Shown here: piece after piece, positions 12,928-18,282 of the stretch
Layout: each line of letters opens with the position of its first letter
Position numbering within the stretch: position 1 is the first letter of the stretch
Assembly (NCBI GenBank): GCA_018971265.1
Contig: JAGXBE010000001.1
Location: 1,051 to 65,050 of the forward strand
Length of the DNA: 64,000 nt
Reading direction: 5' to 3'
Origin: Patescibacteria group bacterium
GTDB lineage: Bacteria; Patescibacteriota; Minisyncoccia; Phycocordibacterales; Phycocordibacteraceae
Program-made: the position numbers and the translations under genes
The notes under the pieces: model-generated
What the model was told of the DNA's origin: nothing
Seen by the model: only the letters and a program-made list of their open reading frames with translations
Databases searched by the model: none

Positions 12928-14143
12928 ATTCGACCTGCCGGACGTACCCGGTGTGTACCTGTTCAAGCAGGGGAGAAAGATTCTGTATGTCGGGAAAGCG
13001 ACAAATTTGCGGGACCGTGTGAAGTCGTATTTCGACGATGATCTGATAGCGACGCGCGGCCCGCGCGTTGTGGACATGGTGACGAAAGCCGATCGCATCG
13101 CCTTTGAAACGACACCAACGGTGCTTGAGGCGCTTGTGCGCGAAGCCGCACTCATTAAGAAACACCGTCCGTCTGCAAATACCGAAGGGAAAGACGATAA
13201 GACTTTTCTTTACGCGGCGATAACAAACGAGATGATTCCGCGCGTGCTCATGATACGCGGGAAGGATATTGATTTTAAGAATAAAAAATCGCAAGACATC
13301 GCCTTGCGTGCCCTCTATGGCCCGTTCCCGTCGGGCGCACAGTTGAAAGAGGGCCTGCGCCTCATACGCCGCATTTTCCCATTTTTTGATACAGCGAAAC
13401 CAGTGACGGTGCAGAGTAAACACCAAGCGGCGAAGATTGAATTCAACGCGCAGATTAAGCAATACCCCCGTACGTTCGAGGCCGGTGAGTATCGTCGTAC
13501 GATACGGCGGGTGATGCTTTTTTTGAGTGGTCGCGGCAAAGAGCTGCGCGCTCTGCTCGAACACGAGATGCGTGCGGCGGCGAAGAACGAGCGATTTGAA
13601 GACGCAGCCGAAGCGCGCCGCGAGCTTTTTGCGCTCGACCATATTCAAGACGTTTCGCTCATCAAGGATGGAAACCTTACAGGGCTCCGAGCGAATACCG
13701 CAAGCGCCCGCATCGAGGCCTATGACACTGCGCACCTTTCAGGCACGAACGCAATCGGTGTCATGACGGTGATTGAGGACGGCGTGCCGGCCAGACGCGA
13801 GTACCGGACGTTTCGCATACGCAGCGTTCAGAAGAACGATGACATTGCGTCCCTGAAGGAGATACTCATGCGGCGCATCAAGCATCCGGAGTGGTCATTT
13901 CCGAAAGCGATTATTGTGGATGGTGGGAAAGCGCATAAAAAAGCCGCGGAAAATGTGCTGAGTGCGGCTGGCCTCAATATTCCGGTCATAGCCGTGGTAA
14001 AGGATGAACGGCACCGGCCGCGCGAAGTTATCGGCGCACACCGGGTGTTCGTAAGCGATGCCGATGCCGTACTTGCCAATAGCGAGGCGCACCGCTTTTC
14101 GCTTGCGCGGCATCGACGCGCCCGGAGTAAAAGCATTCGTTAA
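12905..14143 (+). CDS. uvrC: Excinuclease ABC subunit C, compact form lacking the C-terminal HhH domain
   Basis: GIY-YIG (PGVYLF..LYVGKA..LRDRVKSYF), UVR motif (FEDAAEAR), RNase H-like domain (IEAYDTAH, IIVDGG); ends after EAHRF. Confidence 0.9.
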   Translation: MQRSELVKFDLPDVPGVYLFKQGRKILYVGKATNLRDRVKSYFDDDLIATRGPRVVDMVTKADRIAFETTPTVLEALVREAALIKKHRPSANTEGKDDKTFLYAAITNEMIPRVLMIRGKDIDFKNKKSQDIALRALYGPFPSGAQLKEGLRLIRRIFPFFDTAKPVTVQSKHQAAKIEFNAQIKQYPRTFEAGEYRRTIRRVMLFLSGRGKELRALLEHEMRAAAKNERFEDAAEARRELFALDHIQDVSLIKDGNLTGLRANTASARIEAYDTAHLSGTNAIGVMTVIEDGVPARREYRTFRIRSVQKNDDIASLKEILMRRIKHPEWSFPKAIIVDGGKAHKKAAENVLSAAGLNIPVIAVVKDERHRPREVIGAHRVFVSDADAVLANSEAHRFSLARHRRARSKSIR

Positions 14144-14219
14144 GTACCAAGTTTGACACCGGTGTCTGCGCCTGTAGTATTCATGATGGAATCTTCCATA
14201 AACCGCCGAGGAGTGTGCT

Positions 14220-14633
14220 ATGTTCGAGTCGACTGTCGTCCTCATCAAGCCGGATGGGGTTCTGATGGGGGTCGGCGAAAGAATCATTGAGCGTTATCTG
14301 ATGTCGAAGTTGGGCCTGCACAAACGCAGAGACATTTACTTTTCGCTCCGCCAGGCAGAAACTTTTTATGGCGAGCACGCCGGACGATTTTATTTCCCGG
14401 GACTCGTGTTGGCGATGACCAGCGGGCCATCAATCGCAATGGTGCTGCAGGGGGAGAATGCAGTGGCTCGAGTCCGCGAACTGAACGGAGCGACAAACCC
14501 GAGTAAAGCCGTCCCAGGCACAATCCGGCACGATTTTCGAAGTGCGGGCGGACCGTTTAACACGGTCCACGGTTCGGATAGTGTCGAGGCCGCTCGTAGG
14601 GAAATGGACGTGGTGTTCTGGAACTTAATCTAG
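14220..14633 (+). CDS. ndk: Nucleoside-diphosphate kinase
   Basis: IKPDGV, GATNP, PGTIR, NTVHGSDS (catalytic His); GAGGAG SD upstream. Confidence 0.96.
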   Translation: MFESTVVLIKPDGVLMGVGERIIERYLMSKLGLHKRRDIYFSLRQAETFYGEHAGRFYFPGLVLAMTSGPSIAMVLQGENAVARVRELNGATNPSKAVPGTIRHDFRSAGGPFNTVHGSDSVEAARREMDVVFWNLI

Positions 14634-14650
14634 TCTTGTTCGCCGTTTTG

Positions 14651-14678
14651 CGCCGCTTCTTTGAGCGGCGTTTCTTTT
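14651..14678 (+). terminator. Intrinsic terminator after ndk
   Basis: CGCCGCT-TCTTTG-AGCGGCG followed by TTTCTTTT. Confidence 0.6.
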
Positions 14679-14692
14679 GGTATACTTTCCTC

Positions 14693-15655
14693 ATGCAAAC
14701 TATCGTCGGCGTGCTGCGTGGCGGGCCGTCGCGCGAACATGAAGTCTCGCTCAAGACGGGTGCGGCCATTCTCGCAAATCTGCCTGAAGACCAATTTCTC
14801 GCGCGTGACATTTATATCGATAAAAATGGCGGGTGGCATGATCGCGGGCGCCCAACCGCGCCCGATCGCGTGTTGCGCCAGCTCGATGTTATTCTCATCG
14901 GTCTTCATGGTGAATACGGCGAGGACGGGGGCGTCCAGAAACTGCTCGACCGGTTCGGGGTCCCCTATGCCGGCGCGGATTCCTTCGGTTCGTATCTCGC
15001 GATGCACAAGCTCATGGCAAAAGTGCGCGCGCAAGAGACAGGGCTCTTCACACCGAAGTTCCGGCACATCGAGCGTGTCGCGGATGCCGAGGCGGCAGTA
15101 CGCGAGATCATCCGTGCCTTCCCGCAGCCGGTTGTCGTGAAGCCGGTCGGTTGGGGTTCATCGATCGGTGTTTCCATCGTGGGCGGGTATGCGCCGGTAC
15201 TCGCCGCAATCGAAGGACTTTTTACCGAAGGCGCGCCGAGTGTCCTCGTTGAGGAATATATCCGAGGTCGAGAAGCGACGGTGGGAGTCGTTGAAAAGCT
15301 CAGGAACAAACCGCTTTACGTACTTCCAACAATCGAAATAATACCGCGGAAGGGAAATTTCTTTTCGTATGCCGCCAAATATTCCGGCGAAACACGCGAG
15401 ATTTGTCCGGGCAATTTCTCTCGCGTCGTGACGGAAGAGCTTCAAAAAGCAGCGGAAATAATGCACCGCGCCCTTGGCCTAAGGCATTACTCGCGCACGG
15501 ATTTTCTTATCGCACCGAAAGGCGTGTATTACCTGGAGACCAACACATTGCCAGGCCTTACCGAGGAATCTCTCCTACCGAAATCACTCGCTGCAGTCGG
15601 CGTTTCGTTTCCAGACTTCCTCTCACATCTGGTCAATCTTGCGCTCACGCGGTAG
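14693..15655 (+). CDS. ddl: D-alanine--D-alanine ligase
   Basis: GGPSREHEVSL, LHGEYGEDG, GSSIG, YLETNTLPG. Start 14693 follows TG-G-TATACT by 6 nt. Confidence 0.95.
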   Translation: MQTIVGVLRGGPSREHEVSLKTGAAILANLPEDQFLARDIYIDKNGGWHDRGRPTAPDRVLRQLDVILIGLHGEYGEDGGVQKLLDRFGVPYAGADSFGSYLAMHKLMAKVRAQETGLFTPKFRHIERVADAEAAVREIIRAFPQPVVVKPVGWGSSIGVSIVGGYAPVLAAIEGLFTEGAPSVLVEEYIRGREATVGVVEKLRNKPLYVLPTIEIIPRKGNFFSYAAKYSGETREICPGNFSRVVTEELQKAAEIMHRALGLRHYSRTDFLIAPKGVYYLETNTLPGLTEESLLPKSLAAVGVSFPDFLSHLVNLALTR

Positions 15656-15666
15656 AGTTTCTGCAG

Positions 15667-15739
15667 GGGCCGTTAGCTCAGTTGGTAGAGCACCTCGTTT
15701 GCAACGAGGGGGTCGCAGGTTCGAATCCTGTACGGTCCA
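15667..15739 (+). tRNA. tRNA-Ala(TGC)
   Basis: Cloverleaf GGGCCGT/ACGGTCC-A with G3:U70; anticodon arm CCTCG-TT-TGC-AA-CGAGG; TTCGAAT loop. Confidence 0.96.
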
Positions 15740-15813
15740 CAGAGCGAGAAAAAGTCGGATTATAGCACCGGCTTTTTCTTGCTTTGTGGCGGCGGATGTA
15801 CAGGATTCGAACC
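15718..15813 (+). repeat. Long inverted repeat folding back onto the tRNA-Ala(TGC) T-arm
   Basis: 15737-15758 pairs with 15768-15789 (22 bp, 3 G-U). 15798-15813 is the exact reverse complement of 15718-15733. Confidence 0.9.
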
Positions 15814-15891
15814 GATACGGTCCATCTATCTTTTTATGTTATCCTGCTACAGTTCGCGCTCTTAGCTCAGTTGGTTAGAGCAGTTCGTTCA

Positions 15892-16000
15892 CCCCGTTAG
15901 ATAATTGGGCGGTTAGCTCAGTTGGTTAGAGCGTACGCTTCACACGCGTAAGGTCACAGGTCCGATTCCTGTACCGCCCACCGGGTGTTATCTAACGGGG
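15892..16000. repeat. Perfect 13-bp inverted repeat flanking the nested tRNA
   Basis: CCCCGTTAGATAA (15892-15904) and TTATCTAACGGGG (15988-16000). Confidence 0.92.
15907..15980 (+). tRNA. tRNA-Val(CAC), nested inside another tRNA gene
   Basis: GGGCGGT/ACCGCCC-A acceptor; TACGC-TT-CAC-AC-GCGTA anticodon arm; ACAGG-TCCGATT-CCTGT T-arm. Confidence 0.93.
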
Positions 16001-16061
16001 CAAGCACGCGAAAGGTCAGGGGTTCGAATCCCTTAGAGCGCACACGGGAGGTGTTCTGTGT

Positions 16062-16132
16062 CGGGCCGGAGTATGCCGGTAGTACGCACGCTTCGGGTGC
16101 GTGTAGACCGGGTTCAATTCCCGGCGGCCCGA
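16062..16132 (+). tRNA. tRNA-Pro(CGG)
   Basis: CGGGCCG/CGGCCCG-A; CACGC-TT-CGG-GT-GCGTG; CCGGG-TTCAATT-CCCGG. G at position 8 instead of the usual U. Confidence 0.88.
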
Positions 16133-16220
16133 CAAAGAACATCTCTCGAAGAGAGGTGTTCTGGACCGCCAGGAATTGAGGGCCGGAGCGCGACGGCGTG
16201 AGGCGGGGTCGCGCAACACT

Positions 16221-16314
16221 CACAACGGGCTATAAGCAAAGCTTTCGTCTCCGTTGTTCCGGAGAGAATAATCATAGGAAGACTTGTGTTACTCTTCCTC
16301 CACAACGGGCTATA
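16221..16314 (+). repeat. 14-bp direct repeat duplicating the 5' end of tRNA-Pro(GGG)
   Basis: CACAACGGGCTATA at 16221-16234 and 16301-16314. Confidence 0.8.
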
Positions 16315-16376
16315 GTATACCGGTAGTACGCATGCATGGGGTGCATGTAGACCGGGTTCGATTCCCGGTAGCCCGA
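16306..16376 (+). tRNA. tRNA-Pro(GGG)
   Basis: CGGGCTA/TAGCCCG-A; CATGC-AT-GGG-GT-GCATG; CCGGG-TTCGATT-CCCGG. Confidence 0.94.
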
Positions 16377-16479
16377 AAGTAGCGAAGCGAGGTAAGGAAT
16401 GGGAACGCGGAACGTTCGCCCGGGAATCGAAGGTCGGAAGGGTGAATTTTATTTTTCCGCGTGATAAAATCGTCCCTAT

Positions 16480-16552
16480 GGGCCATTAGCTCAGTTGGTA
16501 GAGCGCGTCATTCGCATTGACGAGGTCAGGAGTTCGACTCTCCTATGGTCCA
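16480..16552 (+). tRNA. tRNA-Ala(CGC)
   Basis: GGGCCAT/ATGGTCC-A with G3:U70; CGTCA-TT-CGC-AT-TGACG. Confidence 0.95.
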
Positions 16553-16561
16553 CCGTGCTTC

Positions 16562-16632
16562 GGGCCTATAGTTCAGCGGTAGAACGCGTCCATGGCATGG
16601 ACGAGGTCGGGGTCCGACTCCCCGTAGGTCCA
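16562..16632 (+). tRNA. tRNA-Ala(GGC)
   Basis: GGGCCTA/TAGGTCC-A with G3:U70; CGTCC-AT-GGC-AT-GGACG; TCCGACT T-loop. Confidence 0.94.
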
Positions 16633-16723
16633 CAAAATTAACGAGCCGTAATCGGCGATTATAATTTTGTAGGATATCGAGGTATTCCGAGGCGCCACAA
16701 ACAAAAAGTGTTACTATAATTTC

Positions 16724-17125
16724 ATGCTAAAAGAATTTAGACAATTTTTACTTCGCGGAAATGTCGTCGATCTGGCGGTTGGCGTCGTAGTCGGCGCAGC
16801 ATTCGGCACAGTTGTATCAGCTCTCGTCTCTGATCTCTTAACCCCGCTTATCGGCGCGGTCGCTAAAGTCCCTGACTTTAGCAAACTCTCGTTCACCCTC
16901 AACGGAAGCACATTCATGTATGGCCACCTCTTTAACGCGCTCATTTCTTTCGTTCTTGTCGCCGGCGCCGTTTTCTTTTTTGTGGTGAAGCCGATGAATT
17001 TGCTCGTTGCGCATTCGCGCACGGAAGCGCCGGCCGATCCGACAACCAGGAAATGTCCGGAATGCATGAGCGAGATTCCAATCAATGCGAAGCGCTGCAT
17101 GTACTGCACGCAAACCGTTGCTTGA
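16724..17125 (+). CDS. mscL: Large-conductance mechanosensitive channel with C-terminal CxxC..CxxC zinc ribbon
   Basis: MLKEFRQFLLRGNVVDLAVGVVVGAAFGTVVSALVSDLLTPLI; tail KCPEC...RCMYC. Confidence 0.95.
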   Translation: MLKEFRQFLLRGNVVDLAVGVVVGAAFGTVVSALVSDLLTPLIGAVAKVPDFSKLSFTLNGSTFMYGHLFNALISFVLVAGAVFFFVVKPMNLLVAHSRTEAPADPTTRKCPECMSEIPINAKRCMYCTQTVA

Positions 17126-17147
17126 GGCAAATGAAGTTTCCGTAAGC

Positions 17148-17184
17148 TAAAAGCAAAACCCGCCCTGGGCGGGTTTTGCTTTTA
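17148..17184. terminator. Bidirectional terminator between convergent mscL and the SWIB gene
   Basis: Perfect palindrome TAAAAGCAAAACCCGCCC-T-GGGCGGGTTTTGCTTTTA. Confidence 0.85.
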
Positions 17185-17201
17185 TAGTTTTTGGACTCGC
17201 G

Positions 17202-17453
17202 TTAGCTTAAATGCGCCGAGACGAGCTTCGTCATCTCGAACATCGTGACCTCGCTTTTGCCGCCGAAAATCGCCTTCAATTTTTCATCGGCGAGAATATT
17301 TCTCTTGTTCTGGGGATTCTGAAGATTGTTCTTCTTGATATATTCCCAAAGCTTCTTAACCACTTCGGTTCGCGGAAGCGGGCCCGCGCCGATGACCGCC
17401 TCCAATTCCGGAGAAAGGTTGAGCGGCTTCGACAAAGCTGAATTCATAGCCAT
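17202..17453 (-). CDS. Stand-alone SWIB/MDM2 domain protein
   Basis: LSPELEAVIG..PRTEVVKKLWEYIKKNNLQNPQNKRNILADEKLKAIF..VTMFEMTKLVSAHL. Confidence 0.92.
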   Translation of the reverse strand: MAMNSALSKPLNLSPELEAVIGAGPLPRTEVVKKLWEYIKKNNLQNPQNKRNILADEKLKAIFGGKSEVTMFEMTKLVSAHLS

Positions 17454-17535
17454 AGAGTGTGAATTTTGTATTATTGCTAACTGACTGAGTATTATATAGC
17501 ACACTTTAGGCCCCATCTGCTAGAATACAATTACC

Positions 17536-18282
17536 ATGCAAGGGGGAATCTCGGTCGTCCTTAAGGCGGAGCAACTTGGCTCCGTTTTCGGTTTTCCTAT
17601 CACCAACGCGCTCGTTATGACCTGGGCGGTTATGCTGCTCCTTATCGGCTTTGCATTTTTCTTCGGCCGCTCACTTTCACTCGTGCCAACCAAGCTTCAA
17701 AGCGCTGTAGAGTGGGCTTTTGAGGGCGCACTCGCCTATATGACCGAGGTTCTTGAAAGCAAAAAGCTTGCGCGGCGGTTTTTCCCGCTCGTCGCATCAA
17801 TTTTCCTTTTCATTGCGATTGCCAACGAGCTTGAATTCTTTCCGGGCGTCGGCTCATTCGGACTCGTGCACGCCACGAATTTCTTGCCTCTACTGCGTAC
17901 GCCGACAACGGACCTCAATTTTACCCTGGCACTCGCAATGATCTCCTTTTTTACCATCGAGATAACGGGTATCGCGACGCTCGGTTTTTTCAAATATGTC
18001 GGAAAATATGTTAACCTTAAATCACCCATCGGATTTGTCGTTGGGCTTATCGAGTTCATCAGCAACCTTGGTCGGCTTATCTCGTTCTCGTTCCGTCTTT
18101 TCGGGAATATCTTTGCCGGCGAGGTAATGGTGTTGGTCGCCGATTATTTCCTACCGTATTTCCTTCCGGCGCCCTTGATGGGGTTTGAGATGTTCATCGG
18201 GTTTGTGCAAGCCCTGGTTTTTGCGATGCTCACCCTTTTCTTCATAAAGCTCGCGATTACGGAGCCGCACGGAGCGCACTAG
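17536..18282 (+). CDS. atpB: F0F1 ATP synthase subunit a
   Basis: PTTDLN, ISFSFRLFGNIFAGE, FVQALVFAML. Confidence 0.96.
   Translation: MQGGISVVLKAEQLGSVFGFPITNALVMTWAVMLLLIGFAFFFGRSLSLVPTKLQSAVEWAFEGALAYMTEVLESKKLARRFFPLVASIFLFIAIANELEFFPGVGSFGLVHATNFLPLLRTPTTDLNFTLALAMISFFTIEITGIATLGFFKYVGKYVNLKSPIGFVVGLIEFISNLGRLISFSFRLFGNIFAGEVMVLVADYFLPYFLPAPLMGFEMFIGFVQALVFAMLTLFFIKLAITEPHGAH

Follow-up and report, generated by a model that had tools for sequence, protein, structure and literature searches.

At positions 15856–16042 of the window (the whole 64,000-nucleotide stretch of the source genome that was analysed), one tRNA gene lies complete within another, with all features on the forward (+) strand. 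Throughout, G000 denotes the source genome and other G numbers other genomes, L numbers denote loci, C numbers contigs of G000, and X2 and X4 sequencing runs. The locus opens with the 5′ half of an outer tRNA gene (15856–15887), comprising the 5′ strand of the acceptor stem, the D arm and the damaged 5′ strand of an anticodon stem. A TTCA 4-mer (15888–15891), which fits both tRNA positions 32–35 and the TTYA end usual in the arm family described below, leads into a 13-bp left arm (15892–15904) that is the exact reverse complement of a 13-bp right arm at 15988–16000. Between the arms lie, in order, the dinucleotide TT, an intact tRNA-Val(CAC) gene with no encoded CCA (15907–15980), and a 7-nt linker. 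Beyond the right arm, a non-tRNA CAAG 4-mer (16001–16004), the CRRG end of the arm family, precedes the outer 3′ half (16005–16042), which runs from tRNA position 36 to the discriminator A73 and occurs only once in the source assembly. The cassette so delimited is 109 bp long (15892–16000) with perfect 13-bp arms; 74 of its 109 nt are tRNA, it holds no ORF of 50 aa, and its point of insertion corresponds to position 35/36 in the anticodon loop of the outer gene.

The elements described in the initial annotation are all present where it had placed them. The inner gene is called as Val(CAC) by ARAGORN and matches the Rfam tRNA family with 69.5 bits (E = 2.7e-14). The annotation had also envisaged a transcript of two cloverleaves joined by a 13-bp helix, and the predicted fold of a 201-nt stretch takes just this form (z = −3.96; 0 of 200 shuffles equally stable), with the 5′ leader of the inner gene paired. 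In the outer gene the acceptor stem is perfect, as described there, and so are the D and T arms, but the pairing TTCGT/GCGAA offered as the outer anticodon stem is out of register, since an intact relative in G006 gives the native stem as TTCGC/GCGAA and the 5′ side at the source locus is damaged.

Comparison with relatives bears on the identity of both genes. All 41 genomes searched match the region, and G006 carries an intact tRNA-Val(CAC) at the same locus, upstream of tRNA-Pro(CGG), which is the uninterrupted ortholog that the initial annotation had proposed to look for. The outer halves are identical to this gene over its first 26 nt and over 40 nt from position 36 onward (the exact match spans 16005–16044 of the window), and 13 of 18 Val(CAC) genes at relatives' loci are of the outer acceptor type, with 0–1 mismatches in their leading 25 nt. 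Against the G006 gene the inner one shows 14 differences in 74 nt, and against that of G017 it shows 2 in 74. Because the outer halves match the syntenic ortholog and the inner gene departs from it at so many positions, the outer halves are the resident native tRNA-Val(CAC), whose Val identity had been guessed from the junctions and the 3′ side, and the inner gene is a foreign allele from another lineage. G017 holds a decayed form of the same nesting, in which the outer 5′ half and the inner gene are one base apart over the first 25 nt; the junction pattern occurs in 4 of 251 family genomes, and at tRNA-Val only in G000 and G017.

That the cassette was inserted into the resident gene is thus very probable. 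We hold with the same high confidence the joint proposition that the outer halves are now a pseudogene and that transcription of the inner gene would start at the resident promoter, with ordinary tRNA processing releasing it. Reading from the resident promoter is suggested because the cassette has no room for a promoter of its own. Two observations count against this picture: a promoter scan upstream of the locus called no consensus promoter, and the inner 5′ leader, from which the gene would have to be cut, is paired in the predicted fold. The inner copy, the only Val(CAC) among the 43 tRNA genes that ARAGORN called in the assembly, likely supplies the tRNA in place of the split gene. It had been suggested that the outer halves might furnish an anticodon missing elsewhere, and ARAGORN called no Asn, Phe, Trp, Thr(GGT) or Gly(TCC) gene on the assembly; the idea was dropped, as the outer gene is Val with the same anticodon as the inner one.

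The arms belong to a family. An 8-mer from the arm occurs 24 times in G000, always in head-to-head pairs (12 pairs, 27–115 nt long), and each of 20 simulated fourth-order Markov genomes yielded 1–6 arms and 0 pairs. All 11 non-tRNA copies in G000 are flanked by a 4-bp target duplication lying outside a variable terminal pair; their contents are unrelated, and they sit at start codons, in frame within genes, or in intergenic DNA. The single contig of G350 has 59 arm matches, including three near-identical 98-nt copies and copies nested within one another. Viral contigs also contain 8 stretches with arms 40–70 nt apart. Positions 10–13 of the arm take 29 different sequences. In 97 of 120 elements all four positions pair, and 500 shuffles of the partners gave 15.4 such elements on average and never more than 24; such covariation points to a folded single strand.

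Unlike their siblings, the tRNA cassettes show no target duplication (0 of 106). Their terminal pair is C-G in 75 and T-A in 28 of the 106, a TTYA/TRAA end is present in 89, CRRG stands to the right of the arm in 47 and its complement to the left in 29, and no single cutting rule was found that yields these TTYA/CRRG ends. Two kinds of recombination site were considered for the family and rejected. A resemblance to integron or Xer-type sites was dropped, given that the flank overlap is 4 bp and that G000 has no tail-to-tail arm pair, and the 2-bp crossover of a serine recombinase fits fewer flanks than does the 4-bp duplication.

Between the same arms there is also an element of about 280 bp, the sole gene of which encodes a GIY-YIG nuclease of about 90 residues. 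Arms without a partner in G350 proved to be solitary in 3 of 4 regions, and in the fourth the arm opens a 94-aa ORF whose stop codon lies within a right arm with one mismatch. The ORF is a GIY-YIG domain (PF01541, E = 3e-13); its nearest solved structures are the UPF0213 proteins 1ZG2 and 1YWL, and NCBIfam has no specific model for it. G000 carries a single copy of its own (L308; C41:7666–7941) with near-consensus arms and a 4-bp duplication, in which the conserved residues Y, Y, G, R, H and E are all intact. The gene whose start holds this copy reads as a putative pheT, and the same pheT-like site is occupied in G005 and G007. Among 53 related sequences, the catalytic-type residues are kept in at least 90%, and in a tree of these 53 nucleases (85 columns, bootstrap unsettled) the arm-bounded copies cluster, requiring 2 changes against 8.3 for shuffled labels.

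Metagenome relatives of the nuclease have both arms in 78 of 80 loci (68 distinct sites), a figure inflated because the query overlapped an arm; a core-only query found both arms at 9 of 30 loci, among them 8 of the 9 with the highest scores. Of the 68 metagenome sites, 66 hold elements of 279–284 bp and 48 show a 4-bp duplication. At the level of genomes, examination of 59 of 68 matches found arm-bounded GIY-YIG genes in 4 of the 13 genomes with cassettes and in 2 of the 13 controls. These frequencies do not differ meaningfully, so co-occurrence lends no support to a dependence of the cassettes on the nuclease, and the gene could be cargo rather than mobiliser.

More distant homologues of the small nuclease lie either between other arm sequences or inside split tRNAs that are followed by a full copy, the latter arrangement being present in 9 of 59 loci as well as in L311, L314, L317 and L332. 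A 5′ tRNA fragment with a palindrome, a distant GIY-YIG gene and a full tRNA copy can be seen at L311, L314, L317, L319, L331, L332, L348, L357, L375, L378, L381 and L382, and the palindrome at L332 has the same CTTG/TGAA ends. At L341, L344, L354, L356, L379, L385 and L395, small GIY-YIG genes are found within different inverted arms, which suggests that several enzyme–arm pairs exist.

Nested tRNA genes proved to be widespread. When 401 genomes of the class were searched for a right arm with a T loop behind it, a pattern blind to the cargo, 35 of them had matches. Of 30 loci from the cargo-blind search, 15 have a true T arm, and an intact tRNA lies just upstream in 15 of 15, one of which (L059) matched only through an 8-mer that occurs by chance within an ordinary tRNA. 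A scan of GTDB genomes, of which 41 of 64 parts were read, gave at least 120 loci, from which about 200 are estimated in total; the titles of 80 loci among the matches listed name Patescibacteria groups in 67 cases, only a "bacterium" in 9, and other phyla in 4. The initial annotation had allowed for a one-off pseudogene, and this is countered by the recurrence of the nesting across Patescibacteria; about 100 other genome records have it, most of them from ultra-small bacteria.

Arm-bounded tRNAs make up 109 of the at least 120 GTDB loci and represent 19 anticodons. Since the GTDB pattern required a T loop, the tRNA cargo follows by construction, but the flanks do not. The best match of the flanks is to a tRNA for the same amino acid as the cargo in 91 of 109 cases, to one for another amino acid in 9 and to nothing in 9, which leaves 100 with a tRNA-like flank. 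Of the 67 parsable cases, 49 retain pairing in the acceptor and T stems of the outer gene and depart from the inner gene at 4–19 of 24 stem positions; the shells are therefore different alleles rather than decayed copies of the cargo. Together with the arm family, the native outer gene and the foreign inner one, this correspondence of cargo and target supports a suggestion of the initial annotation, namely that an inverted-repeat-bounded cassette had carried a tRNA into a tRNA.

The point of insertion is not fixed. Among 110 sites, 50 are in the anticodon arm, 20 in the D loop, 2 in the variable or T region and 6 ambiguous, with 32 too decayed to place; 32 of the 110 outer copies have no recognisable T loop. 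Insertion points vary both between and within isoacceptors, and many Ala(CGC) shells lack the anticodon itself. Cassettes that are 94–95% identical lie in different loops in different hosts (L154 in the D loop, L126 and L171 in the variable region), which is not explicable by spread through the outer halves. The cassette copy is sometimes not the sole copy, in that G350 has a second intact Val(TAC); G115 and G433 have one match each, and the pattern missed G157. Nesting in several layers, with one cassette inside the shell of another, was seen at L058 (G225) and L154.

We favour, with a probability of roughly 60%, a reading in which the cassette was moved as single-stranded DNA by the small GIY-YIG nuclease and was guided by the homology of its cargo to the resident gene, which it split. 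The closest known parallel is provided by the Ssn nucleases, single-domain GIY-YIG proteins of about 90 aa that work with a hairpin repeat (NTS/SRM) with asymmetric flanks; they cut single-stranded DNA site-specifically beside the hairpin, do so even when the hairpin halves are on two oligonucleotides, and affect natural transformation (Chenal et al. 2025, PMC11893778). By analogy, the GIY-YIG protein is somewhat favoured as the mobiliser, nicking next to the folded arms, and would thereby free or activate a folded single-stranded cassette. The cassette would then enter as transforming single-stranded DNA, DprA/RecA would mediate the pairing of its tRNA loop with the resident homologue, and short, imprecise overlaps would accompany the joining of its ends within one of the target's loops; we give this sequence of entry, pairing and joining an even chance. 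The ComEC, DprA and RecA families are all present in G000. A broader formulation must be held more tentatively, at somewhat short of even odds: that these elements may constitute a new class of mobile DNA, in which a 280-bp element with only a GIY-YIG gene moves as a single-stranded hairpin with no known transposase, and its gene-less derivatives, guided by their cargo, split and replace tRNA genes of the same kind and so turn over essential genes across Patescibacteria.

One alternative is movement in two steps followed by selection, whereby an empty or nuclease-bearing hairpin first splits a tRNA gene, recombination between arms afterwards gives it a tRNA as cargo, and survival is limited to cognate replacements. 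Such swapping would suit the occurrence of the end 4-mers in either orientation around the near-identical cassettes L124 and L174 (91% identical), the habit of the elements of nesting in their own arms, and the distant GIY-YIG genes that split tRNAs ahead of a full copy. The intermediate it calls for is nevertheless missing from the 30 cargo-blind loci, where no tRNA split by these arms holds a non-tRNA cargo. Nor are unmatched landings common, as at most 9 of 109 tRNA cassettes have no tRNA-like flank, even though non-tRNA sites outnumber tRNA sites 11:1 in G000. The final selective step is also hard to reconcile with the cargo, for tRNAs with C34 anticodons are often dispensable, so that selection on them should be weak, and such anticodons make up 69 of 109 cargos. 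On balance, the two-step route is unlikely.

MITEs and mobile insertion cassettes have terminal inverted repeats, no transposase inside and a target duplication, and derive from a parent with a DDE transposase and the same ends. The tRNA cassettes share with them the short non-coding form, the terminal inverted repeats, the lack of an internal transposase, the target duplications of sibling copies and the passenger gene, and it is conceivable that they too are mobilized by an unseen DDE transposase, with both GIY-YIG and tRNA genes as mere passengers. The 4-bp duplications in all 11 non-tRNA copies and in 48 of 68 nuclease copies, and the missing genome-level link to the nuclease, would be in keeping with this. 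Against it, the terminal pair varies and the inner arm covaries in the manner of a hairpin, and the GIY-YIG gene is the only ORF seen between these arms, in elements of up to 600 bp. Unlike a MITE passenger, moreover, the cargo matches the gene that is struck, the tRNA copies lack the duplication, and the coding partner is a GIY-YIG gene; the cargo-matched targeting would be left unaccounted for. We consider this explanation quite unlikely. As for REP/REPIN elements with a RAYT and the IS200/IS605 group, their Y1 (HUH) transposase family (PF01797) was not found in G000, which is 97% complete, in a search whose control was positive in 6 of 14 genomes.

The initial annotation also proposed that the insert could be an intron of a novel type or a scaffold, with one transcript giving rise to two tRNAs, and the perfect outer acceptor, D and T arms and the stable double cloverleaf speak for this. 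As the initial annotation had maintained, the insert fits neither ribozyme nor archaeal introns: Rfam finds no group I, group II or other intron family at E ≤ 1 within 14000–18000, and by inspection the predicted fold has a small internal loop and a continuous helix in place of a bulge-helix-bulge motif. The annotation's failure to rebuild a canonical outer anticodon loop was likewise borne out, as removal of the arms with 0–6 nt per side never gave a canonical Val anticodon arm at this locus. When the same removal was applied to all 50 anticodon-arm cases and a canonical cognate anticodon arm was sought, 14 could be rebuilt on paper, but these need different trims, and 36, including the source locus, could not. 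An intron or a scaffold is further at odds with the variable insertion sites, 20 of them in the D loop, and with the outer copies that have no T loop; at the source locus, the outer product would only repeat the inner anticodon. Both the two-tRNA route and the scaffold are accordingly very unlikely. In a separate trial, 125 excision joins gave ARAGORN calls scattered over many anticodons and no canonical product.

A local self-duplication of the resident gene with subsequent decay of the outer copy could be imagined from G017, where the outer and inner 5′ halves are so similar, and is extremely unlikely given that the syntenic ortholog matches the outer halves and not the inner gene, which contradicts it at the source locus, and that 0 of 49 intact outer shells share the stems of their inner gene.

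Finally, an assembly chimera over the 20 nt that the two D arms share was addressed with contigs from public sequencing runs; five DNA runs were examined as contigs across the locus, and six RNA runs contained less than 0.1 of the words. A 180-nt contig from X2, which may be the source sample of the assembly, covers 15907–16085 with 0 differences and so spans the inner tRNA, the right arm and the outer 3′ half. The right junction is thus bridged, and the left junction (15888–15898) is without cover in contigs from four DNA runs. A contig from X4 matches the upstream region of the source (15745–15881, 0 differences) and continues into an uninterrupted anticodon arm of another allele; it comes from a strain in which the site is empty, or else is itself chimeric, joined through the D-arm sequence common to both genes. 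Despite the bare left junction and this contig, a chimeric locus is most improbable, because the right junction is bridged, the left arm is the exact complement of the right one, the two outer acceptor strands pair, and the same layout is found in about 100 independent records.

The favoured reading, cargo-guided movement as single-stranded DNA, may also be set against other known systems. Like Ssn, the element has a single-domain GIY-YIG protein (here about 94 aa) with catalytic residues and a hairpin partner; unlike Ssn, a single hairpin is split and has the gene or the cargo as its loop, and there are target duplications and tRNA cargo. The SRM consensus has 0 matches at the locus and around C41 and a match at 1 of 80 nuclease loci, so the element is not Ssn/SRM by the published consensus, and the main text of PMC11893778 mentions neither tRNA nor Patescibacteria. 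In phage T4, SegB is a GIY-YIG enzyme that cuts double-stranded DNA at the TψC motif and spreads by gene conversion between phages (PMC2330249); it resembles the proposed system in spreading tRNA genes along with itself, and the abstract describes neither nested genes nor hairpin arms. The Dada transposons of eukaryotes also target tRNA and snRNA genes, in which their insertion sites are fixed, and have a DDE transposase, duplications of 6–7 bp and no terminal inverted repeats, with no replacement gene mentioned in the accessible portion of PMC3706591.

The cassette shares with prophages and islands that target tRNA genes both its site of insertion and the fact that a tRNA is kept available. 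Those elements carry a gene fragment together with an integrase and rebuild the tRNA at the junction. Unlike them, the cassette contains a complete second gene, lacks an integrase and inserts into more than one kind of loop; the sole tyrosine recombinase match in G000 is Xer-like and lies on another contig. Inter-lineage exchange of whole tRNA genes by a cassette of 90–140 bp that lands in the gene it duplicates is outside the known classes tested, and no description of tRNA-carrying hairpin cassettes was found in the open-access literature searched.

Through such exchange, tRNA alleles would become horizontally mobile in streamlined genomes, and the nesting accounts for fragments of tRNA genes overlooked by annotation tools. 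Were the GIY-YIG protein to act as the mobiliser, this would be a very small transposition system with new chemistry, and cargo-guided insertion by a 90-residue enzyme would have value as a tool. Such a system would also bear directly on the open proposal that Ssn–hairpin pairs are or were mobile, NTS-ssnA-NTS having been proposed as once mobile in the accessible text of PMC11893778.

Elsewhere among the genomes searched, L019, L021 and L026 each combine a 5′ tRNA fragment, a short palindrome of another type and a full tRNA copy. On contig C23 of the source genome (111–428), ARAGORN reports a tRNA-Met(CAT) that is interrupted by 246 nt; this insert may be a genuine self-splicing intron. It also calls a tRNA-Ile(TAT) at C15:17877 and a tRNA-Arg(GCG) at C43:8288 and no Arg(ACG) in G000, hinting that this organism decodes without the usual wobble modifications. 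In the assembly, the tRNA genes for His, Leu(GAG), Gln(TTG) and Ser(GGA) are each present twice and DprA has two matches, in agreement with the 4% contamination figure. In the window, behind tRNA-Ala(TGC), the 3′ part of that gene recurs twice within 15798–15824, inverted over 16 nt at 15798 and in direct orientation over 9 nt at 15816. Downstream of the nested locus (16048–16330), an 11-nt direct repeat flanks tRNA-Pro(CGG) at 16048 and 16153, and 5′ fragments of tRNA-Pro occur at 16180 and 16221, ahead of tRNA-Pro(GGG); these repeats and fragments suggest further old insertions.
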